NCBI RefSeq assembly: GCF_900079115.1
Contig: NZ_LT549890.1
Coordinates: 2,400,001-2,432,000 of the forward strand
DNA length: 32,000 nt
DNA from: Saccharolobus solfataricus
GTDB taxonomy: Archaea; Thermoproteota; Thermoprotei_A; Sulfolobales; Sulfolobaceae
Direction of reading: 5' to 3'
The position numbers and the translations under genes are program-made. Position 1 is the stretch's first letter. Every line of letters begins with the position of its first letter. Under the pieces are notes generated by a model. It was not told where the DNA came from. It saw nothing but the letters and a program-made list of their open reading frames with translations, and did no database searches. Positions 2,559-24,122 of the stretch are shown piece after piece.

Positions 2559-2605
2559 ATGAAAGCTGAAAATTGGAGTAATGTAGTTGGTGGCTACATC
2601 TCGTG
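2559..2605 (+). pseudogene. 5' fragment (15 codons + 2 nt, MKAENWSNVVGGYIS) of the MFS transporter gene split by ISC1234
   Basis: ATG at 2559. Joining 2605 directly to 3838 (removing 1232 bp = IS + one copy of ctcgtg) gives ...GGYISWVMDGYDLGAV..., in frame with ORF 3842-5008. Confidence 0.75.
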
Positions 2606-3831
2606 AGAGTGTCCGGAATGTAAAAAATTGAATTTTTATTGGCAAGAATAAATTGGTTTCTAGTATTATCTTGGATTAAATTGGAGTAACACTTAAGTTA
2701 TGGGAGTAGAGGGTAGTACCATGGCAAGAACATTAAGACACATACCAAACCTGATGTACTACCCTCTTCCCCCAATAGAGGATATGCCGTGGAGGGAAAA
2801 ATGGTTAACGGAGATCAAGCCCGTGCTGGACGCCATGGATTTGGAGAGGGTCCTTGGCGAGGGCGCGCTGGTTTACCTGAAGTTGTTAATCGTCATGGTG
2901 CTCTATTCCTGCTCCTATAGGGACGCGGTGAAAATGGTCAACGTGAACGTGGTCGTGGCCTGGTTCGTGGGGAGGAAGGTGGGGAAGAGCACGCTGCACG
3001 ACTTCGTGGGCAGGTTGTACGGGGTGAGGAAGAAGTTGTTGGAGATTTCCTTCAAGCTTGAGGAGAAGTGCCTACCCAGTTACCTCCCTGCGAGCGCGCA
3101 TCTCGTGGACTTCATGGCGTGGCTAGTGGACTCCTTCCTACTGGACTTACCTCCTGGGAAGAGGAGCGTGGAGACCTTTCGGGAGAAGGCGGAGCTGGAG
3201 AGGAGGGAAGGTAACTTGGAGAGGGCCAGGAAGCTGCTCTCCCTGGGGAGAACCAAGAGGAGGTTCGAGGGAAGGTGGACCAAGAAGAGAGGGGTCTCGC
3301 ACTACGGGCTCAAGGCAGTGGCCGTGATCTCCGTCTCCCTCTTCGTGAGGTCCATCACGTTGAAGCCAGCCAACTTCTCGGACAAGAGGTTCAAGTCACC
3401 GCTCAAGGGGATTAAGATCGCGGACAGGGGATTCTCTCCCTCCCCGACACAGCTCATAGCGCGGGAGAAGCCCTTCACTACCCTGAGGGCCCACGTGGAG
3501 TTCTTCGGCACCTACCTGAACGCGTTCTGGAGGCCCTACGGGACTACGACTTGGAGGAACGACGTCTTCCTTCACGTCCTGGGAGTGATCTACAACATCA
3601 AGATATTCCTCGCGATCCAACGGAGGACTCCTCCAGAACGTAGAGCCGTTCAGCTCTGAGACGCACCTCCTCGCGATCAGACAACGCTATGCGCGATAGG
3701 TAAATCCTCTCGTCTTGATATTTTTCCATTATAAAGTTTTTCTCGGTGATCCAGGTCCTATCCTTCTGGCAATATTAATATTTATCATTCTGTTTATCTA
3801 TTCGTTCAGATAATTACATTCCGGACACTCT
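2606..3831 (+). mobile_element. ISC1234-like insertion sequence (IS5 family), copy 1, inserted in the MFS gene
   Basis: The terminal inverted repeat agagtgtccggaatgt ... acattccggacactct is perfect over 16 bp. It is flanked by direct repeats ctcgtg (2600-2605 and 3832-3837). The element is GC-rich relative to its surroundings. An almost identical copy lies at 10133-11358. If the cgtg bases are counted as element, the span 2602-3835 is exactly 1234 bp, so the ends are ambiguous by about 4 bp. Confidence 0.85.
2700..3659 (+). CDS. ISC1234 transposase (IS5-family DDE)
   Basis: 319-aa ORF filling the element. It is repeated at 10227-11186 with 4 aa differences. The family assignment is from memory of Sulfolobus IS nomenclature. 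Confidence 0.8.
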   Translation: MGVEGSTMARTLRHIPNLMYYPLPPIEDMPWREKWLTEIKPVLDAMDLERVLGEGALVYLKLLIVMVLYSCSYRDAVKMVNVNVVVAWFVGRKVGKSTLHDFVGRLYGVRKKLLEISFKLEEKCLPSYLPASAHLVDFMAWLVDSFLLDLPPGKRSVETFREKAELERREGNLERARKLLSLGRTKRRFEGRWTKKRGVSHYGLKAVAVISVSLFVRSITLKPANFSDKRFKSPLKGIKIADRGFSPSPTQLIAREKPFTTLRAHVEFFGTYLNAFWRPYGTTTWRNDVFLHVLGVIYNIKIFLAIQRRTPPERRAVQL

Positions 3832-3837
3832 CTCGTG

Positions 3838-5008
3838 GGTAATGGATGGGTACGATTTAGGTGCTGTTGTTATTACAGCAACGATATTAGGTAAATTGTT
3901 CTATCCCGGGATAGGTTTGCTAAGTGCAGTTTTGCCCATAGTGTTTACTGTAATCTCTAGGCCATTAGGTGGATTTGTTTTTGGTTATGTTGGAGATAAA
4001 TACGGCAGAAGAGTTAGCTTACTAATTTCGGTATTAGGTTACTCTTTATCTATAGGCTTAACTTCTATATTACCTACTTATGCCCAAATAGGGATTTTAG
4101 CTGCCGTTATAATTTCAATTCTAAGATTTATACAAGGTATATTTATAGGAGGAGACGTTGCGGGTAGTTTCACTATAGTAATGGAAAGCCTTAACAATTA
4201 TAGAGGTCTATTTTCCGGTATAATGCAATCTGGAGTTTTGGTTGGTTTTGTTGGAGTTGACTTCTTATTTACTTATTTAGCGTCTGTTACTGGAGCACAG
4301 TTTATATCGACTTATTGGAGGTTAATTTTCGCCATTGGAGTAATACCAGCAATATTGGCTGCCTTAATTAGATTCAGGATGACAGAACCTAGTGTCTGGC
4401 TTAAGATAAAACATTCTGCAAATCCCTTAAAAGGCCTAAGAGAACTTCCGCAACCGTTTCTAGTTATGGTAGGCTTCTGGTTGGCAATTTACGCTGGACC
4501 TCAATTAGTACCTACATTGTTTGGGCAAGTGATGAAGTTGCCTCCTTCGTATTACGGTCCTTTAGTTCTCTATATGAATTTAATAGGGATACCATCCATG
4601 TTGGTTGCAGGAGTTCTCTCGGATTATATAGGGAGAAGAATGATGGGTATAATAGGTTCGATATTTGCTGCAATAGGTTCATTAACTTTTTATTACTTTA
4701 TTCAAATTCACAACATTAACCTATTATATCTTATATTACTTTTCGGTTTTCTGGTAAACTTGCCCTCTTCTATAACTCCTGCATTTTTATCAGAGAGATT
4801 TAAGACGTTTACAAGAGCTTTGGGAGTTGGCACCGCGTACAATGGAGCATATATAATAGCGGGTTTCGCTCCGATTTACGTTTCCATTCTTTCGAACTTT
4901 ATGAATCCATTTAATGCAGCTACAACAGTAGCAGTTATCGGCTTCATTATAGCCATAACTGGACTTATTGCGGGACCGGAAACTTATAAGACAAGTCTAG
5001 AAGAGTGA
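3838..5008 (+). CDS. MFS transporter, metabolite:H+ symporter (MHS)-like; 3' portion of an IS-disrupted gene (an internal ATG at 3842 could still allow expression)
   Basis: Multi-TM protein with the MFS loop 2-3 signature RPLGGFVFGYVGDKYGRR and a second copy, LSDYIGRR. The N-terminal 15 codons lie upstream of the IS at 2559-2605. Confidence 0.8.
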
Positions 5009-8961: not shown

Positions 8962-10109
8962 TAGCACTTTACGGTTTTCTCCTCCTCTTGAACAGTTTTT
9001 TGATCCCACCCGCCTCACGGTAAATACTTTTTATCAATCTGGCCAACCTTTTGGCCCCGAGCATCAGACCCGTGGAGTACTTGAAGTATTGAACAACGAG
9101 GAGGGAGAGAGCCTTCAAGGCCACGAAGCCTGAGTTCCTAACCCAGGTCAAGAAGGACCCACCCTCGAGTCCCAAGGCCTTGAGCTCCCTGATCAAGACC
9201 TCTATGTCCCAACGGTTCTCCCAGGTCGTTATGATATCTTCAGCCGTGTCGTTAAGGTCGGTGGAGAAGAAATACCTCCTCCCGTAACCCTTATAGTCAT
9301 CTATAACAAGTAACTTTATGGGAGTCCCCAAGTACTCTACCAGGTACTCCCCTTGGGGGAACTCGCTAACGGGCACGGATCTGCCACCCTCGACGACTCG
9401 CGCGCTGGACTTGAGTTCCCCCACAGTATTCCCTTGGAGAGTCCTCGAGTTCACGTACCACGAGTCGAAGACCTTGGATTTCACATTCAAACCTGAGAGG
9501 GAGGAGAGAAACTCCAAGAGGGCATCTATCTTGGTCTTGAACTTCACCTCCTCACCCCTACGCTTGAGCTCCTCTTCCACCTTTCGGGGTATGTAGGCAA
9601 TTATGTGGATCACGTAGATCTGGTTGTTCACCAGATCCTTGACGCCAATCACAAGGAGTTGGATCGCGGGTTCGAACCTCTTGTGCGCCCTACAGTAGAA
9701 GATCTGCGCCCCGTTTCTGGAGACCGGCATGGCCCTAGCGTAGAGCTTGTGGTCGTGGGTGTCGTCCACTATGAGAAGGACAGGATGATCCCCGACTAAC
9801 TTCTTCACGACCTCGATTAGTTTGGCTTGAGCTGCCTTGTCCAAGTTATTCAGTACGGTCTCGTAGTCCATCTCGGCCTCTTGAGCTATCTCGGTAGCAT
9901 TTCTTCCCACAACCGCCCCCAAGAGTAGCCTCTTGGCAACGTCCTTCCTCGTTCCAGTCATGGATAGTATGACCTCGTTAACTGCCTTTTCCAATGCCTT
10001 ATAGTACTCCTCCCTCGTCAATTCTTTGGTCATACCAAAATTAAAGGTTCTAATTTTAAAAAGTTTTTATGGGCCTCTTGAACTGCCAGGATTTTCCGAT
10101 AAATGCTAA
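8962..10109 (-). mobile_element. ISC1217-like insertion sequence (1148 bp) nested in the ISC1359-like transposase gene
   Basis: Imperfect terminal IR: tagcactttacgg (8962-) versus the reverse complement of 10096-10109, ttagcatttatcgg. It is flanked by the direct repeat tcaggatcagg (8951-8961) / tcaggattagg (10110-10120). The name rests on my recollection that ISC1217 is about 1147 bp and is tentative. Confidence 0.65.
8969..10033 (-). CDS. DDE transposase of the ISC1217-like element (354 aa, apparently intact)
   Basis: Full-length ORF filling the element. C-terminal WENRWDIEVLIRELK resembles the DDE-transposase Y/W-R-E-K region. Confidence 0.75.
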   Translation of the reverse strand: MTKELTREEYYKALEKAVNEVILSMTGTRKDVAKRLLLGAVVGRNATEIAQEAEMDYETVLNNLDKAAQAKLIEVVKKLVGDHPVLLIVDDTHDHKLYARAMPVSRNGAQIFYCRAHKRFEPAIQLLVIGVKDLVNNQIYVIHIIAYIPRKVEEELKRRGEEVKFKTKIDALLEFLSSLSGLNVKSKVFDSWYVNSRTLQGNTVGELKSSARVVEGGRSVPVSEFPQGEYLVEYLGTPIKLLVIDDYKGYGRRYFFSTDLNDTAEDIITTWENRWDIEVLIRELKALGLEGGSFLTWVRNSGFVALKALSLLVVQYFKYSTGLMLGAKRLARLIKSIYREAGGIKKLFKRRRKP

Positions 10110-10132
10110 TCAGGATTAGGACTTGTGACGTG

Positions 10133-11358
10133 AGAGTGTCCGGAATGTAAAAAATTGAATTTTTATTGGCAAGAATAAATTGGTTTTTAGCATTATCTTG
10201 GATTAAATTGGAGTAACACTTAAGTTATGGGAGTAGAGGGTAGTACCATGGCAAGAACATTAAGACACATACCAAACCTGATGTACTACCCTCTTCCCCC
10301 AATAGAGGATATGCCGTGGAGGGAAAAATGGTTAACGGAGATCAAGCCCGTGCTGGACGCCATGGATTTGGAGAGGGTTCTGGGCGAGGGCGCGCTGGTT
10401 TACTTGAAGTTGTTAATCGTCATGGTGCTCTACTCTTGCTCCTATAGGGACGCGGTGAAAATGGTTAACGTGAACGTGGTCGTGGCCTGGTTCGTGGGGA
10501 GGAAGGTGGGGAAGAGCACGCTGCACGACTTCGTGGGCAGGTTGTACGGGGTGAGGAAGAAGTTGTTGGAGATTTCCTTCAAGCTTGAGGAGAAGTGCCT
10601 ACCCAGTTACCTCCCTGCGAGCGCGCATCTCGTGGACTTCATGGCGTGGCTAGTGGACTCCTTCCTACTGGACTTACCTCCTGGGAAGAGGAGTGTGGAG
10701 ACCTTTCGGGAGAAGGCGGAGCTGGAGAGGAGGGAAGGTAACCTGGAGAGGGCCAGGAAGCTGCTCTCCCTGGGGAGAACCAAGAGGAGGTTCGAGGGAA
10801 GGTGGACCAAGAAGAGAGGGGTCTCGCACTACGGGCTCAAGGCCATAGCCGTGATCTCCGTCTCCCTCTTCGTGAGGTCCATCACGGTGAAGCCGGCCAA
10901 CTTCTCGGACAAGAGGTTCAAGTCACCGCTCAAGGGGATTAAGATCGCGGACAGGGGATTCTCTCCCTCCCCGACACAGCTCATAGCGCGGGAGAAGCCC
11001 TTCACTACCCTGAGGGCCCACGTGGAGTTCTTCGGCACCTACCTGAACGCGTTCTGGAGGCCCTACGGGACCACGACCTGGAGGAACGACGTCTTCCTTC
11101 ACGTCCTGGGAGTGATCTACAACATCAAGATGTTCCTCGCGATCCAACGGAGGACTCCTCCAGGACGTAGAGCCGTTCAGCTCTGAGACGCGCCTCCTCG
11201 CGATCAAGCAACGCTATGCGCGATAGGTAAATCCTCTCGTCTTGATATTTTTCCATTATAAAGTTTTTCTCGGTGATCCAGGTCCTACCCTTCTGGCAAT
11301 ATTAATATTTATCATTCTGTTTATCTATTCGTTCAGATAATTACATTCCGGACACTCT
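10133..11358 (+). mobile_element. ISC1234-like insertion sequence, copy 2, nested in the ISC1359-like transposase gene
   Basis: It has the same 1226-bp core and the same 16-bp perfect IR as copy 1. It is flanked by gacgtg (10127-10132) / cacgtg (11359-11364), which match at 5/6. By eye there are roughly two dozen substitutions and no indels relative to copy 1. Confidence 0.85.
10227..11186 (+). CDS. ISC1234 transposase (IS5 family), copy 2
   Basis: 319-aa ORF differing from 2700-3659 at 4 residues (V/I, L/V, I/M, E/G). Confidence 0.8.
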   Translation: MGVEGSTMARTLRHIPNLMYYPLPPIEDMPWREKWLTEIKPVLDAMDLERVLGEGALVYLKLLIVMVLYSCSYRDAVKMVNVNVVVAWFVGRKVGKSTLHDFVGRLYGVRKKLLEISFKLEEKCLPSYLPASAHLVDFMAWLVDSFLLDLPPGKRSVETFREKAELERREGNLERARKLLSLGRTKRRFEGRWTKKRGVSHYGLKAIAVISVSLFVRSITVKPANFSDKRFKSPLKGIKIADRGFSPSPTQLIAREKPFTTLRAHVEFFGTYLNAFWRPYGTTTWRNDVFLHVLGVIYNIKMFLAIQRRTPPGRRAVQL

Positions 11359-11364
11359 CACGTG

Positions 11365-11595
11365 AGGAAGGAACTGGTCCTCGTCCTGCTCTCCTATCTT
11401 CTCTTGAACGTCTGGTTCTTGATCCGTTCTTGGAGGAAGGTCAAGTTGTGGGAGTTCTCGGTCTCCCTCTCGAACCTCCTCGATCGGGAGGTAAGAGTGG
11501 AACAGGGACGCGCGTTCCGTGAAGTGAAGACGTCATTCCCTAAACTCCAGCTAACCCTATGCACCTCCTTCCAGCTACGTGAAATTAATTCTTAA
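11365..11595 (+). pseudogene. ISC1359-like transposase, C-terminal 76 codons
   Basis: Reads RKELVLVLLSYLLLNVWFLIRS.... Splicing 8961 + 10121-10132 + 11365 gives FRIR-TCDV-RKELV in one frame, a 365-aa reconstructed ORF. Confidence 0.7.
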
Positions 11596-19693: not shown

Positions 19694-20742
19694 GGTGCTT
19701 TGTGGATTGCTTCAGAATTGTACAAAAAGTTTATAGATTATTCGTTAAGTATTACCTATGGGAAAGAGTAAGTACAAGAGGGACTGGAGCAAGTACGACG
19801 AGAACGTCATAACTAGATATAAGTTGATGTTCCCTTCTACGTATTCGAACATTGGTGGGACTTATTAGCAGAGGAGAACAGGAACGCTAGGACAAAGTAT
19901 AAAGCTCCGAAGGAGTTCAACGAATTCCTAGCATTCTTACACATCTTCCTACCTTGCAATAGAAGGAGTATTAAGAGCCTTAGAACAATTGAAGATCATC
20001 CCCACAAGCCTCGAACAATATGGGAGAGAGTGAGGAACATGAACATAACCTTCCCCGAGACAAGTGATGAACTTGAAGTAATTGTAGACGCTACCGGCAT
20101 TAGCACAAACACGGGAGGACAATACATTGTTGCCAAGTGGGGTAAGACTATGGATTCAAAATTCCTCAAGATCGAGATAGTAATGGACAATAACGAATTC
20201 AACGTGGTAAACGCTGAGGTCACTAGCAACGAGGTTGAAAGTGCTGTAAAAACAGTTAAGGATCTTCAAGATAAGGGAAAGAAGGTCAAGAAGTTTTATG
20301 GAGATAAGGCATATGACGTCAATGAGGTTTACAAGACCGGAGTTGAGGTTGTAGTTCCTCCCAAGAAGAACGCTTCTACTAAACGCCATCCTGCTAGACG
20401 TAAGGCTGTGAGTGAGTTTAGGAAGTTGGGTTATGATCGTTGGAGGGAGGAGAAGGGTTATGGCGTTAGGTGGCGGGTCGAGTCCTTGTTCTCTGCGGTG
20501 AAGCGTACTTTTGGGGAATCGGTTAGACAAGTTTTGCTGGGCAAGTAGTTGAGGCTAAGCTCAAGTTCTGGGCTTACGCGTGGATGGTTAACTTGGCGAA
20601 TTCTGTAGTCGGTAGGGCTCCGGGCATTAGGGTGTAAGCTTGAGAAGAACGTTGAAATAAATATTAATTACTGAAAAAATTAGTGTTATACAATATCGTT
20701 TTAATGAGACAAATTAAACGAATCAACAAAGTATATTGCACC
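19694..20742 (+). mobile_element. ISC1058-like insertion sequence (IS5 family), decayed copy (~1049 bp)
   Basis: Imperfect IR: ggtgctttgtggattgcttcagaatt (19694-) versus the reverse complement of the right end, ggtgcaatatactttgttgattcgtttaattt (ending at 20742). The internal transposase reading is broken several times. Confidence 0.7.
19758..20637 (+). pseudogene. ISC1058-like transposase with at least 3 frameshifts
   Basis: Reads MGKSKYKRDWSKYDENVITRYKLMFP, shift, WWDLLAEENRNARTKYKAPKEFNEFLAFLHIFLP, shift, AIEGVLRALEQLKIIPTSL, shift, then ORF 20030-20548. After a final shift it reads QVVEAKLKFWAYAWMVNLANSVVGRAPGIRV and stops. Confidence 0.75.
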
Positions 20743-20781: not shown

Positions 20782-21066
20782 ATGGAGCCATTCTATTTCA
20801 AGTCCTATAATAGAACAGTAGGAATAGCTCATGATATAAATGAATTAGAGAAGGAGATAGAGAGACTAGGAAGGGATGATCCTGGTTGTGTTGAGTGGCA
20901 TCTTAGGGAGGGGCATATTGTGGTTTGGTTGAACTATATTGGTGAGAGGGGTTTGGCTGAGATGTTGAGGGGGGTTGGTAACGTGAAGGAGGCGTTGGCT
21001 AGGATTAGGGAGTTTAAGGCATTGAAGAGTAGGCAGAGGAAGAGGACAAGATACTATAGCAAATAA
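20782..21066 (+). CDS. Hypothetical 94-aa protein whose C-terminal 65 codons are encoded by the 199-bp repeat
   Basis: ATG-initiated ORF. Codon style switches at the repeat boundary (see findings). The TAA is completed by the first unique base after the repeat. Confidence 0.5.
   Translation: MEPFYFKSYNRTVGIAHDINELEKEIERLGRDDPGCVEWHLREGHIVVWLNYIGERGLAEMLRGVGNVKEALARIREFKALKSRQRKRTRYYSK
20867..21065 (+). repeat. 199-bp direct repeat, copy 1
   Basis: By base-by-base visual comparison it is identical to 22492-22690. Hand count: 79 G versus 15 C. Confidence 0.9.
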
Positions 21067-21301
21067 TCCATTTTTTACGGTTAACTAAACTTCCAACTTT
21101 TTCTCAAGTTAGTATTTATAGGAAAATCGTTACACTTTTACGTTACGTTAAAAATATATAATGAATCTTTCCTGGTTAGATGAAAAATGTTTATTGATAA
21201 GCTATAATATTAAGAAGTACAATGGAAGATATTTATAAATACATGGATAAATATTTTGACTTTTTATGATAAGGGAATTTCCTAAAACTACTATCAAGTC
21301 T

Positions 21302-21494
21302 GGTCTATCGGACATGTGCGATTCAAGTGTCTTTTGCGAATTGTAATTTGTAAATGATGCAGTTGTAAAAATGTTAACATTTGGTAATCATGTTTCTCTA
21401 CTAATTAGTCGCCTTCATTTAGTTAATTTCATAGCAATCTTTAAAATAAAGTGAATTCGCAATGGATGTCTGAATCTCCCGGTCTATCGGACAT
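21302..21494. repeat. MITE-like structure: 14-bp direct repeats flanking 23-nt imperfect inverted arms
   Basis: ggtctatcggacat occurs at 21302-21315 and 21481-21494. The arms are gattcaagtgtcttttgcgaatt (21320-21342) and aattcgcaatggatgtctgaatc (21454-21476), matching at 17/23 as an inverted repeat. A 14-bp perfect palindrome, aaatgttaacattt, lies inside at 21369-21382. Confidence 0.45.
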
Positions 21495-21676
21495 AATTAA
21501 AAATCTGAAGTCTAAATTTTAAAAATCTTGAAAATTCGTCTTTGCCTTTAAAGGCTAGACTCTCAGTAGTGAGGAATTAAGACTATGAAAAGATTATCGA
21601 GTGAAGATTATCATTAAATTCTTCTAGGATTGATTAAAAATACAAGCTATGAGATTCTCTGTTCTGATATTAAGAA

Positions 21677-21712
21677 GTTAAACTTTATACCTATTGAGTT
21701 AAACTATTATTT
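21677..21712 (+). promoter_or_regulatory. Putative vapBC promoter: TATA-like tttata flanked by two gttaaact repeats
   Basis: gttaaact occurs at 21677-21684 and 21698-21705. tttata at 21685-21690 is centred about 26 nt before the vapB ATG, consistent with a leaderless transcript. The repeats are candidate AbrB-type antitoxin operators. Confidence 0.35.
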
Positions 21713-21952
21713 ATGATGGTCACAAAGGTACACAAAAAGGGAATAGTAGTTATCCCAAAGGAAATAAGGGAAAAGTTTAACATCAAGGAGAGGGATGAAG
21801 TAATTATTTACAGTGACGAATATGGGATTCACATATTACCAAAGAAGTCGCCAGAGGAATTATTTGGAATAGATAGAGGAAAAAGTTTGGAAGAGCTGGC
21901 TAAGGAACATATTAAAGAAAGGGAAACTGAACGTGCGAAAGTACATCCTTGA
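21713..21952 (+). CDS. vapB: VapB-type antitoxin (AbrB/SpoVT domain)
   Basis: VHKKGIVVIPKEIREKFNIKERDEVIIY is a typical AbrB/SpoVT swapped-hairpin motif. It overlaps the PIN gene by 20 nt. Confidence 0.8.
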   Translation: MMVTKVHKKGIVVIPKEIREKFNIKERDEVIIYSDEYGIHILPKKSPEELFGIDRGKSLEELAKEHIKERETERAKVHP

Positions 21953-22313
21953 TGCTAATATTATATTTCAATTCTTCTCTGGTTCACCTAATGTTAAGAA
22001 GTATCTATTAAATAATGACGAGAAGTTTGTTAACGCTGTAAATCTTTCAGAATTCGCATATCATTACGCAAGGAAATTCGGCCTTAGGGCCTCGAGCGTC
22101 AAATTGAACTACCTCTTGACCTTCATAAATCTTGTGGAAATCGATAAGACACTTGCGGAAATAGCTTCGAAAATAAGATTAAAATACAATCTATCCCTAG
22201 ATGATTCCTTTCTCATCGCCACAGCAGAGGTAATTGAGGGAATAGTTGTCGCATCTGATCACGAGTTAGCAGAAAGAACGGCAAAAGATTATAATGTGGA
22301 ATTTATACTCTAG
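21933..22313 (+). CDS. vapC: VapC-type toxin (PIN-domain ribonuclease)
   Basis: It has YILDANI (first acidic residue), SEFAY, SLDDSFLIATAE and ASDHE, giving the four conserved PIN acidic positions. GTG start overlapping the end of vapB. Confidence 0.8.
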   Translation: MRKYILDANIIFQFFSGSPNVKKYLLNNDEKFVNAVNLSEFAYHYARKFGLRASSVKLNYLLTFINLVEIDKTLAEIASKIRLKYNLSLDDSFLIATAEVIEGIVVASDHELAERTAKDYNVEFIL

Positions 22314-22491
22314 AATAATTTTAATAAAATGAAGATACAACTTTATCCGCATAAAAAATCTTACAGTACTGCTTCAAATTTTAAATCTTAATTTTTCCCA
22401 ATCAAGGTGTTTTTCGGTGTTATACACTTTTTCTTCAAGCTTCTGAGTGGGAAACGCATCGGGCTAATCTATTATAGCCCTATTGTAATAA

Positions 22492-22690
22492 TAGGAAGGG
22501 ATGATCCTGGTTGTGTTGAGTGGCATCTTAGGGAGGGGCATATTGTGGTTTGGTTGAACTATATTGGTGAGAGGGGTTTGGCTGAGATGTTGAGGGGGGT
22601 TGGTAACGTGAAGGAGGCGTTGGCTAGGATTAGGGAGTTTAAGGCATTGAAGAGTAGGCAGAGGAAGAGGACAAGATACTATAGCAAATA
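22492..22690 (+). repeat. 199-bp direct repeat, copy 2 (gene fragment with no start or stop)
   Basis: Identical to 20867-21065. It ends 6 bp before the stop codon of the convergent Lrp gene. Confidence 0.9.
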
Positions 22691-22696
22691 CACTTT

Positions 22697-23464
22697 TTAT
22701 AAAAATTCATATTTTGTTGTTATCATTATTTCTGCGTCCTTATCGTATTCTCTCTTAAACTTTAATGCTAAGTCCCTAGCTTCATCCATACTATCAACCA
22801 CATTTACAAATATTCCAGCTTTATCATCTTCTATTTCAGTGAAAGCGTACTTAGCAAAGAAATTTTTCCCGTCTTCTACTTTAGATGTAAATACTGCAAA
22901 TATAGATATTTCTGCCTTATTTAAATCTATAATAGGGATCAATCGGATGAATTTCTTGCTATATAAATATCTTAGATGCCTTCTGATCGTTTTAGACGAT
23001 ACACCCAATTCTTCGGCAAGCTCAATTGGTTTTATTAGAGGTTTCTCTTTGAGGATACTCACTACTTTCAAGTCGAACTTAGATGGGCTATAAGGCATCT
23101 GATTTGGTATATAAATCATTCTTGGTTCTCCTAACTTCTCGCTCATTTTTCGTATTTTTTCATCAAGTTCAACTCTACTCTTTGAATCGATTTCATAAAC
23201 GTTAATTTCTTCTAAACACTCAATTTTAGCTATGTAATCTCCATCCCAATCGTATAAATTGTTAAAGGCCACGTAGCCATGGTATCTGCCTAGGAAATTC
23301 GGATTTACATAAACTGTAAATCTTTTGATTATATCCCCAAATAACTTTTCCATTCTGTAGCTTACTGCTGGTGGAGATATGCCTAACATGATTGCTATTT
23401 TTCTTTGTGGTGTTCTAGCGTCCTTTAGAAGTATCTTCAAAATTCCCTTATCTATTGAGTCCAT
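22697..23464 (-). CDS. Tandem-domain Lrp/AsnC-family transcriptional regulator (two HTH modules)
   Basis: The first HTH is ILKILLKDARTPQRKIAIMLGISPPAVSYRMEKL. The second is VVSILKEKPLIKPIELAEELGVSSKTIRRHLRYL. Each is followed by a RAM-like region. Confidence 0.75.
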   Translation of the reverse strand: MDSIDKGILKILLKDARTPQRKIAIMLGISPPAVSYRMEKLFGDIIKRFTVYVNPNFLGRYHGYVAFNNLYDWDGDYIAKIECLEEINVYEIDSKSRVELDEKIRKMSEKLGEPRMIYIPNQMPYSPSKFDLKVVSILKEKPLIKPIELAEELGVSSKTIRRHLRYLYSKKFIRLIPIIDLNKAEISIFAVFTSKVEDGKNFFAKYAFTEIEDDKAGIFVNVVDSMDEARDLALKFKREYDKDAEIMITTKYEFL

Positions 23465-23522: not shown

Positions 23523-24122
23523 TCACAATATTTCTTCTTTTTCACTTATCTTTTTGAGACCTTCGAATAAGGAGTTTGTATTTCTTTCATTAAAGGGTAG
23601 TTTTATTATAGTATACTCTCCAGAATATATCCCATACATAAAAAGTATTACATCTCTCTCGTACAAAAAAGTGTAAATAAGTGCTTGCATTAGGTCGACC
23701 TTCTTAAGTTCAGGTTTGCTCTTTATTTCTATCACAAGATCGTCAGAGCAAATATCGGCCTGCCCAACCAACTTGATATTTCCTATTCTCTCTATCCTCT
23801 TATCACAATAGTATAATTTCCTCTCATTAACTACCTCGTAAAGAAGCTCTAGAGCTTTATTCAAATTATAGTAAAATGGTAAATATTTCTCATTAATTCT
23901 GATAATGCCATTTATTAGATATTCTTGCAAATACTCATGAAGTAATTGACCTAGCTTTCCGTTACTGGGCATTCTCAACTCTAGTATATAATATTGGGAA
24001 AGTACTTCGTACTCTATATCCTTGTAGTTAATGAAATAGCCTAATTTCTTTTTTAGACTATTTTCCACCATTCTGCTTTTCTGATCGGAGTTTAAATAGA
24101 TTTTTCCAAAAAACCAAGACAT
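23523..24122 (-). CDS. PD-(D/E)xK nuclease, RecB/Cas4-like core without a Fe-S cysteine cluster
   Basis: Motifs in order are LVGQADI (D123), VIEIKS (E132-x-K134) and QALIY (Q146-xxx-Y150), the RecB-family D...ExK...QxxxY signature. There is no CxxCxxxxxC. Confidence 0.6.
   Translation of the reverse strand: MSWFFGKIYLNSDQKSRMVENSLKKKLGYFINYKDIEYEVLSQYYILELRMPSNGKLGQLLHEYLQEYLINGIIRINEKYLPFYYNLNKALELLYEVVNERKLYYCDKRIERIGNIKLVGQADICSDDLVIEIKSKPELKKVDLMQALIYTFLYERDVILFMYGIYSGEYTIIKLPFNERNTNSLFEGLKKISEKEEIL

Follow-up and report, generated by a model that had tools for sequence, protein, structure and literature searches.

The stretch of DNA analysed here, 32,000 nt of the chromosome of Saccharolobus solfataricus (NZ_LT549890.1, positions 2,400,001 to 2,432,000; hereafter the window), carries a vapBC toxin–antitoxin (TA) operon between two identical 199-bp direct repeats, the first of which is the end of a 94-codon gene, orf94, while the second lies beside lrp, a gene for an Lrp/AsnC-family regulator. 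An earlier note on this DNA had seen in these repeats the attL/attR footprint of site-specific integration and, in the whole, perhaps a minimal, excisable TA module of a new class. Comparison with related genomes supports another view: very probably, the structure is an old duplication of the end of orf94 that has been inherited vertically and kept identical by gene conversion around a resident vapBC operon, and it is not an active mobile element.

A repeat search of the window confirmed that the two copies of the repeated sequence R (c1 and c2; see Table 1 for coordinates) are identical at 199 of 199 positions, have the same orientation and are spaced by 1625 nt; the only other repeat longer than 60 nt is one pair of insertion sequence (IS) copies. 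Since chance recurrence of a perfect 199-mer in 32 kb is impossible, the repeat is non-random. Nor is it an assembly artefact, because the duplication is also seen in two independent complete chromosomes, CP160827.2 and CP033235.1, to which the window is 99.995 and 99.96% identical, respectively. The orf94, VapC and Lrp proteins are those of S. solfataricus P2 (AAK42704, AAK42705 and AAK42706, respectively). As the earlier note had it, c1 supplies the last 65 codons of orf94, and the ORF (open reading frame) coordinates place the last base of the TAA stop codon at 21066, immediately 3' of the copy. The description of c2 as a gene fragment whose frame stays open, antisense through lrp, also holds; that it has no start is not strictly true, since the ORF listing contains a formal 228-aa ORF that enters c2 from an upstream in-frame GTG at 22407. 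This ORF has no family match and nothing supports its status as a gene. The bracketed DNA was likewise found to be AT-rich and to hold a sequence resembling a miniature inverted-repeat transposable element (MITE) together with vapBC (repeat search and Pfam matches), and it contains no integrase or transposase gene, the only ORFs between the repeats being vapB and vapC.

The same structure is present in other species. The order of the locus (M61 peptidase gene, orf94, lrp, epimerase gene and onwards) is syntenic in many genomes. In S. islandicus, the arrangement of c1, vapBC and c2 was found at 11 loci (L.D.8.5 and 10 more, three of them on metagenome contigs), with the 199-bp extent and with homologous junctions; in L.D.8.5, where c1 spans 10086-10284 and c2 11360-11558, both the left and the right junctions are homologous to those of the window. 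The S. shibatae locus is a derived form: vapB and vapC are broken, leaving a 32-aa MazE fragment and a 72–77-aa PIN fragment, and a ~93-bp internal deletion has reduced c2 to positions 9–88 of R and a 19-nt end piece. In S. shibatae CP077713.1 and in Sulfolobus sp. E5-1-F, vapBC is gone, and c1 and an 80-nt c2 are kept. Both flanks of c2 are homologous across S. solfataricus, S. islandicus, S. shibatae and E5-1-F, and these common junctions point to a single origin of the duplication. Because identical junctions are fixed in S. solfataricus and in the 11 S. islandicus loci, and because the derived form occurs in S. shibatae and E5-1-F, the arrangement predates these species. By contrast, in three outgroups (the Saccharolobus metagenome-assembled genome (MAG) DRTY-1, L010; S. 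tengchongensis, L077; and a Joint Genome Institute (JGI) metagenome contig, L078), orf94 and lrp are directly convergent, 17–37 bp apart, with neither vapBC nor a second orf94 copy, which is the ancestral state. Duplication, which the earlier note had listed as an alternative, is what the comparison revealed, and it is an old one, found in four Saccharolobus species.

The cargo is no younger than its surroundings. Between S. solfataricus and S. islandicus, the whole block has diverged by ~11–14%, the same as the flanking genes: nucleotide identity is 86.3% for the M61 peptidase gene, 88.2% for the 5' part of orf94, 89.5% for vapC, 95.8% for vapB, 91.0% for lrp, 88.3% for the epimerase gene and 73–83% for the non-coding spacers. 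Since the cargo has diverged in step with its flanks, it is as old as the species split. The non-coding c2 evolves like the coding c1 (88.9 versus 88.4% identity between the two species) and unlike the adjacent, faster-evolving spacer between vapC and c2 (78.4%).

The two copies have nonetheless remained identical to each other in each genome. Twelve genomes or contigs were compared, and none of them has more than one difference between c1 and c2 (0–1 of 199 positions), while 22–25 of 199 separate the copies of S. solfataricus from those of S. islandicus, with the same substitutions in c1 and c2. A single-nucleotide polymorphism (SNP) private to the clade formed by CP002425.1, CP003928.1 and CP046616.1 is present in both copies, and so is a T>C change private to one S. 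shibatae MAG. In the 79-nt tract that all lineages have kept, each c1 groups with the c2 of its own genome in S. solfataricus, in S. islandicus, in three S. shibatae genomes and in E5-1-F; what remains of c2 in the last two lineages (79–80 nt) shows 0 (S. shibatae) or 2 (E5-1-F) differences from its own c1, versus 4–12 from other species. If c1 had independently accumulated half of the 11.6% coding divergence, and c2 half of the ~21% spacer divergence, ~30 differences per genome would be expected, and by our own estimate the probability of 0–1 differences since the species split would be ~1e-13 or less. The few within-genome mismatches between c1 and c2 fall at positions 194 and 196 only, at the right-hand boundary of the repeat, and the 19-nt end piece that the internal deletion cut off from the rest of c2 no longer matches the c1 of the same genome in S. 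shibatae (~4 differences) or in E5-1-F. Both observations fit conversion tracts that would require flanking homology.

Taken together, these patterns indicate that c1 and c2 evolve in concert, recurrent intrachromosomal non-crossover gene conversion being the simplest mechanism that would produce them. The earlier note had named an old and inert duplication, with independently diverging copies, as what would refute its reading; half of this holds: the cross-species junctions show that the duplication is old, but the copies turned out to be homogenised, an outcome that the note had not foreseen. Sulfolobales are capable of efficient short-patch homologous recombination, which has reportedly been a subject of the Grogan laboratory in Sulfolobus, and concerted evolution by gene conversion is known from the duplicated tuf genes and the rRNA operons of bacteria. 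The present repeats share with these their identity within a genome and divergence between species, the occurrence of lineage-specific substitutions in both copies and the mismatches at the ends of the homology. They differ from them in that one partner is a non-coding piece of a gene, 199 bp long and only 80 bp long in two lineages, and not a second functional gene, and in that the copies are direct repeats, 1.1–1.6 kb apart around a TA operon, for which no fixed deletion was found. A literature search on this repeat, on locus tags SSO2579-2583 and on concerted evolution in Sulfolobus returned nothing specific to the locus.

The history that we propose is as follows. The ancestor that S. solfataricus shares with S. 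islandicus, S. shibatae and Sulfolobus sp. E5-1-F would have received ~1.1 kb of DNA with vapBC between orf94 and lrp, in an event after which the final 199 bp of orf94 were also present beside lrp. The structure would then have been inherited vertically, with c2 as a non-coding pseudogene fragment that the functional c1 repeatedly overwrites by intrachromosomal non-crossover gene conversion, presumably through the RadA-dependent short-patch recombination of Sulfolobales; it is because c1 overwrites c2 that the copies would be identical within a genome and yet, as a pair, differ by ~11–12% between S. solfataricus and S. islandicus. The MITE would have arrived later, in S. solfataricus only, and in two lineages the cargo has been lost through deletions of another kind, with both repeats retained.

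As for the founding event, the final structure is formally a ~1.1-kb insertion (before the MITE) with a 199-bp target duplication. Candidate routes to it are a template switch, or the repair of a staggered break, that would have copied 199 bp locally while capturing ectopic DNA; the integration, by a single crossover, of circular DNA with a piece of orf94, and its later trimming; or a larger tandem duplication followed by deletions. Whatever the route, only outcomes in which orf94 was again complete, stop codon and T6 terminator included, and in which lrp was undisturbed would be expected to persist. The result resembles target duplications of the type attributed to microhomology-mediated break-induced replication and fork stalling and template switching (MMBIR/FoSTeS), in which foreign DNA is accompanied by a local duplication of a few hundred base pairs and the disrupted gene is regenerated; the likeness concerns the presumed origin only, with no junction microhomology or donor identified at this locus.

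Could the repeats instead be the attL and attR sites of an integrated small vapBC element that a recombinase can still excise? Identical direct repeats do bracket the cargo, the outgroups have what looks like an empty orf94–lrp junction, TA cassettes move between genomes, and a Metallosphaera relative of this operon sits in another context; direct repeats around inserted DNA and an empty site in relatives are also what the SSV-type and pNOB8-type attL/attR sites display. However, the locus departs from those systems in lacking an integrase and a tRNA target, in its longer repeat, in being old and fixed and in the co-divergence of its cargo with the host. No recombinase gene was found inside or adjacent to the unit, the nearest transposase being an unrelated, degenerate, S. 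solfataricus-specific IS5-family fragment outside it, and scans of the window returned no tRNA genes and no Rfam families. The repeat is 199 bp of protein-coding sequence, and the archaeal att cores that we know of are far shorter. The junctions are common to species that are 11–17% diverged, with the cargo diverged in step. In addition, no presence/absence polymorphism was detected within species, either among complete genomes or among contigs from metagenomes: all loci retrieved from S. solfataricus and S. islandicus are occupied, and empty sites occur only in distant outgroups. Finally, where the cargo was lost, in two lineages, both repeats stayed. The attL/attR reading, which we hold to be exceedingly improbable, is thus largely refuted by the comparative data, and the proposal of a new class of minimal, excisable TA module falls with it, on the same four lines of evidence (old, fixed junctions; co-diverged cargo; no polymorphism; repeats that outlast vapBC).

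Searches for the unit elsewhere gave no sign of mobility. The whole unit had no match in phage DNA and no cargo match in plasmid DNA, the plasmid matches being limited to a homologue of orf94 (pAH1) and to IS-related DNA (pYN01). A unit consisting of R, vapBC and R was not found at a second site or as an episome, whether among plasmid and phage DNA, at the loci of VapC relatives or in a scan of metagenomes for circles. The ends of the 1625-bp unit have no terminal inverted repeats and no short target-site duplication, being direct copies of coding sequence. A MITE or composite transposon was ruled out as the carrier of the unit, the only MITE being a later, S. solfataricus-specific insertion inside it. 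The loss of vapBC in CP077713.1 left traces of another kind: 401 bp (L061, 4324-4724) stand in place of the vapBC segment, start with an IS/MITE terminus, contain a 106-aa ORF with no Pfam match and share their terminal sequence with a downstream MITE, which suggests a deletion mediated by mobile-element copies and not a repeat-by-repeat recombination.

A related possibility is that excision needs no recombinase of its own: host homologous recombination between the repeats would pop out a 1625-bp circle (R, MITE and vapBC), with one repeat left behind, and the circle could re-enter orf94-carrying genomes by a single crossover, as a non-autonomous mobile TA module. Perfect 199-bp direct repeats lend themselves to pop-out, on which the genetics of S. 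islandicus routinely relies, though with recombination arms of 776–919 bp (PMC3718332). Moreover, one contig, L058 (Logan run SRR30918482, contig 1141, 1609 bp), is built precisely as predicted for the single-repeat product of recombination between c1 and c2 (orf94 5' part, R, lrp flank; A-R-D) and encodes a 116-aa protein, P0052, in which orf94 is fused through R to the antisense lrp flank.

Against this, L058 is short, and both of its sides match, at 100% identity, CP002425.1 (S. islandicus REY15A, a laboratory strain), a genome that carries vapBC. It begins 35 nt past the M61 stop codon, ~545 nt upstream of orf94, and ends 7 nt upstream of the ATG start codon of lrp, features that suggest a fragmentary or transcript-like library, and a de Bruijn assembler that clips short side branches can produce the A-R-D path. 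An artefact being likely, we doubt that L058 represents a genuine deletion; it is a lead and not evidence of mobility. Were it derived from RNA, lrp transcripts would enter c2 and the long intergenic region between the M61 peptidase gene and orf94 would be transcribed. Two other short-read contigs, L002 and L003 from S. solfataricus samples, run unbroken through c2, and we considered whether this might signal the absence of c1; the idea was rejected, as a de Bruijn assembler would clip, as tips, the short unique sequences that separate c1 from the nearby IS or MITE.

Apart from L058, neither of the products predicted by excision was seen. JGI metagenome contigs gave 0 matches to the single-repeat junction (A-R-D; orf94 5' part/R/lrp) and 0 matches to the circle or tandem junction (B-R-C; spacer/R/c1 flank), with four junction half-patterns that had been validated on wild-type loci, including three JGI contigs, and on L058. 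No single-repeat allele was found in complete genomes either, every S. solfataricus and S. islandicus locus retrieved having both repeats; this survey covered contigs longer than 1 Mb in index blocks, of which 11 were searched with the S. solfataricus proteins, 16 with the main orf94 variant of S. islandicus and 3 in the case of S. shibatae. Of the 1625-bp circle and the single-repeat site that the earlier note had suggested looking for, the only trace is L058, an unreliable contig. Since, in addition, the unit was never encountered at another site and the deletion product would fuse orf94 to antisense lrp, we consider a homology-driven excisable cassette improbable.

Two plausible reasons may be offered for the lack of a fixed deletion. 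The loss of an intact VapBC pair may be harmful, and the recombinant orf94 would lose its stop codon, along with its terminator, and read into antisense lrp, giving 116 aa in S. islandicus. The lineages in which vapBC has decayed or disappeared are the very lineages in which c2 is shortened, which is consistent with a harmful loss of VapBC, though it is not proof. Repeat-by-repeat deletion might therefore be counter-selected, a proposal that we put forward with less assurance than the conversion mechanism.

A further reading attributes the identity of the copies to function. On this view, the lrp mRNA would have c2 as its 3' untranslated region (UTR) and thereby carry 199 nt of perfect antisense to the orf94 mRNA, and selection, with the help of conversion, would maintain a complementarity that preserves the ancestral regulatory coupling of the two genes. 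Several observations would agree with it: orf94 and lrp are convergent and 17–37 bp apart in the outgroups, where their transcripts probably overlapped; the lrp strand has no run of T5 or longer from the lrp stop codon to 22358, beyond c2; c2 is retained in whole or in part in every ingroup genome, even in those without vapBC; and L058, in which lrp is linked to R, may be transcript-like. However, S. shibatae and E5-1-F tolerate the ~93-bp internal deletion of c2, identity at all 199 positions, synonymous ones included, is what conversion alone predicts, and the adjacent non-functional spacer has persisted too. We therefore judge a functional c2 very improbable. In a more specific form of this scenario, which we consider improbable as well, though by a shade less, vapBC would have split an overlapping convergent orf94/lrp pair, c2 would have been kept as the lrp 3' UTR, and read-through lrp transcripts would act as a 199-nt trans-antisense RNA on the orf94 mRNA, conversion preserving the complementarity across speciation. 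In a weaker variant, the identical repeats would keep vapBC permanently excisable by host recombination, and TA addiction alone would hold it in place.

Some points weigh against an old duplication maintained by gene conversion. The conversion itself is deduced from patterns in aligned sequences, and selection for the identity or complementarity of c2 is a possible alternative cause of them. In view of L058, excision by homologous recombination may really occur. The lineages were sampled by exact-protein look-ups, a scan of species-representative genomes having returned no complete Saccharolobus genomes. Lastly, alignments with the three outgroups are compatible with two assignments of the original gene end, either c1 with its T-rich 3' flank or c2 abutting lrp. 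On this last point, a simple target-site duplication had at an early stage been rejected as the origin, owing to the similarity of the c1 flank to the 3' extension of orf94 in DRTY; this rejection was dropped when two more outgroups made the homology ambiguous.

Table 1. Features of the orf94–vapBC–lrp locus (positions in the window)
Feature	Position	Strand	Description
Degenerate ISC1058-like IS5-family element	19696..20731	+	Upstream of orf94, outside the repeat structure; DDE_Tnp_1 fragment
orf94	20782..21066	+	Intact 94-aa gene, parent of the duplicated segment; small-protein family of thermoacidophilic archaea
Repeat copy 1 (R, c1)	20867..21065	+	Codons 30-94, preceded by 2 nt of codon 29 and followed by 'TA' of the orf94 stop codon
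T6 run	21071..21076	+	5 nt past the orf94 stop codon; archaeal-terminator-like, candidate orf94 terminator
MITE, SM3A-like, 165 bp	21316..21480		Terminal inverted repeats; S. solfataricus-specific at this site
Candidate VapB operator, 10-bp palindrome halves	21677-21686 and 21772-21781		GTTAAACTTT and AAAGTTTAAC; perfect inverted repeat
vapB antitoxin gene, 79 aa	21713..21952	+	AbrB/MazE fold; PF04014, E=1.6e-14; TIGR01439
vapC toxin gene, 126 aa	21933..22313	+	PIN domain; PF01850, E=1e-19; AAK42705
Non-coding spacer between vapC and c2	22314..22491		T5 runs at 22392, 22410 and 22428, vapBC-terminator-like
Repeat copy 2 (c2)	22492..22690	+	Non-coding orf94 fragment, 6 bp from the lrp stop codon
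lrp	22697..23464	-	Lrp/AsnC-family regulator; PF13412, PF13404; convergent with orf94

The gene from which the repeat derives, orf94, is a resident chromosomal gene and not part of the cargo. It has no Pfam, NCBIfam or Protein Data Bank (PDB) match. A protein search combined with a profile search of contigs from species-representative genomes identified 41 homologous protein clusters and 48 genomic loci, distributed over Sulfolobales, Thermoplasmata, Thermoproteales, Vulcanisaeta, Caldivirga, Nitrososphaeria and other archaea. The proteins of this strongly conserved family are 95–110 aa long, with an invariant MEPFYF start and the motif HL.EGH.V.WL.Y, and the homologue on the Acidianus plasmid pAH1 lies near plrA and an integrase gene. 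T-rich tracts comparable to the putative orf94 terminator are also found 3' of c1 in other species. On the other side of the structure, lrp is adjoined in all Saccharolobus loci examined by a gene for a 199-aa protein (23523-24122, minus strand, in the window) with no Pfam or NCBIfam match.

The vapBC operon resembles the other chromosomal type II vapBC operons of Sulfolobales: an AbrB/MazE vapB overlaps a PIN vapC (here by 20 nt, with the antitoxin gene upstream), it is one of many vapBC loci, its genomic context is conserved, it is vertically inherited and it has a distant relative in another genus. In S. islandicus LAL14/1, vapBC loci have degenerate IS copies at their flanks, with the one exception of SiL_2575/2576 (PMC3718332); unlike them, the present operon is flanked by a duplicated gene end. 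VapB and VapC are 97.5 and 90.4% identical in amino acids to their S. islandicus counterparts, which suggests that both are under purifying selection. Candidate acidic active-site residues of the VapC PIN domain, read from the translation, are D7, E41, D91/D92 and D112. The palindrome halves GTTAAACTTT and AAAGTTTAAC of the putative VapB operator bracket a TATA-like TTTATA (21684-21689) and the vapB start, the second half lying within vapB, and both are kept in S. islandicus.

The close relatives of VapC in Saccharolobus all come from this locus, this vapBC lineage having a single site in each genome, and the next ones are Metallosphaera proteins with 65–67% identity. One of them, P0071 (67%), is encoded at an unrelated locus, beside a nucleotidyltransferase gene, where flanking direct repeats were looked for and none found. 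DNA homology between the two genera is confined to vapBC and 38 nt of promoter, a stretch that includes the upstream palindrome half, and comparison with this Metallosphaera locus revealed no donor for the spacers around vapBC.

The MITE is flanked by an unusually long 14-bp direct repeat, ggtctatcggacat (21302-21315 and 21481-21494). Its length of 165 bp fits SM3A, a 164-bp element that ISC1058 mobilises (PMC3718332). The MITE termini are similar to those of the neighbouring ISC1058-like IS, and short-read contigs end within the MITE. S. islandicus has no counterpart of the MITE, S. solfataricus positions 21103-21488 having no detectable match there; the corresponding site there is occupied by a single hairpin-like sequence, tatggcctcagggccata. 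Next to the MITE, S. solfataricus has ~200 bp of AT-rich, species-specific DNA (21103-21300). A related MITE copy occurs in S. shibatae at a different position. A different MITE, of ~206 bp, with termini GAGTGTGGACAACAATTT and AAATTGTTGACCGCACTC, separates the TATA box of vapB from its start codon in S. islandicus CP003928.1 (L069, ~4557-4762), where it probably silences vapBC; in this genome, c1 and c2 are identical despite the insertion.

The ISC1058-like element upstream of orf94 is 82.7% identical to an IS5-family IS of plasmid pYN01. Its transposase gene is frameshifted, leaving a remnant ORF (20030-20548), and its insertion between the M61 peptidase gene and orf94 is found in S. solfataricus only, being absent from S. 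islandicus and S. shibatae. One SNP within it (20319, T/C) separates the window from CP160827.2. Farther away, in an IS-rich part of the window, two copies of a ~1.24-kb element (2602-3837 and 10129-11364) are ~98% identical, each encoding a 319-aa protein with a weak match to the DUF772 transposase family; an ISC1217-type transposase gene (8969-10033; PF04693, E=3e-181) lies between them.

What the comparison changes is the nature of the locus: a candidate new class of mobile element is removed, and a natural, well-documented case of concerted evolution in a crenarchaeon takes its place. Concerted evolution being already known, the locus is a new example of a known phenomenon, one in which a non-coding fragment of 199 bp (~80 bp in two lineages) has stayed the same as its parent gene while four Saccharolobus species diverged. 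As such, it offers a natural read-out of the shortest homology tract that supports gene conversion and of the fading of conversion at tract edges. It also calls for caution in genome scans, since perfect identity of flanking repeats is no proof of a recent insertion. As the strains that carry the locus include some that are amenable to genetics (S. solfataricus P2 and 98/2; S. islandicus REY15A), the rate of conversion, the rate of pop-out and any stabilising role of vapBC are directly measurable.

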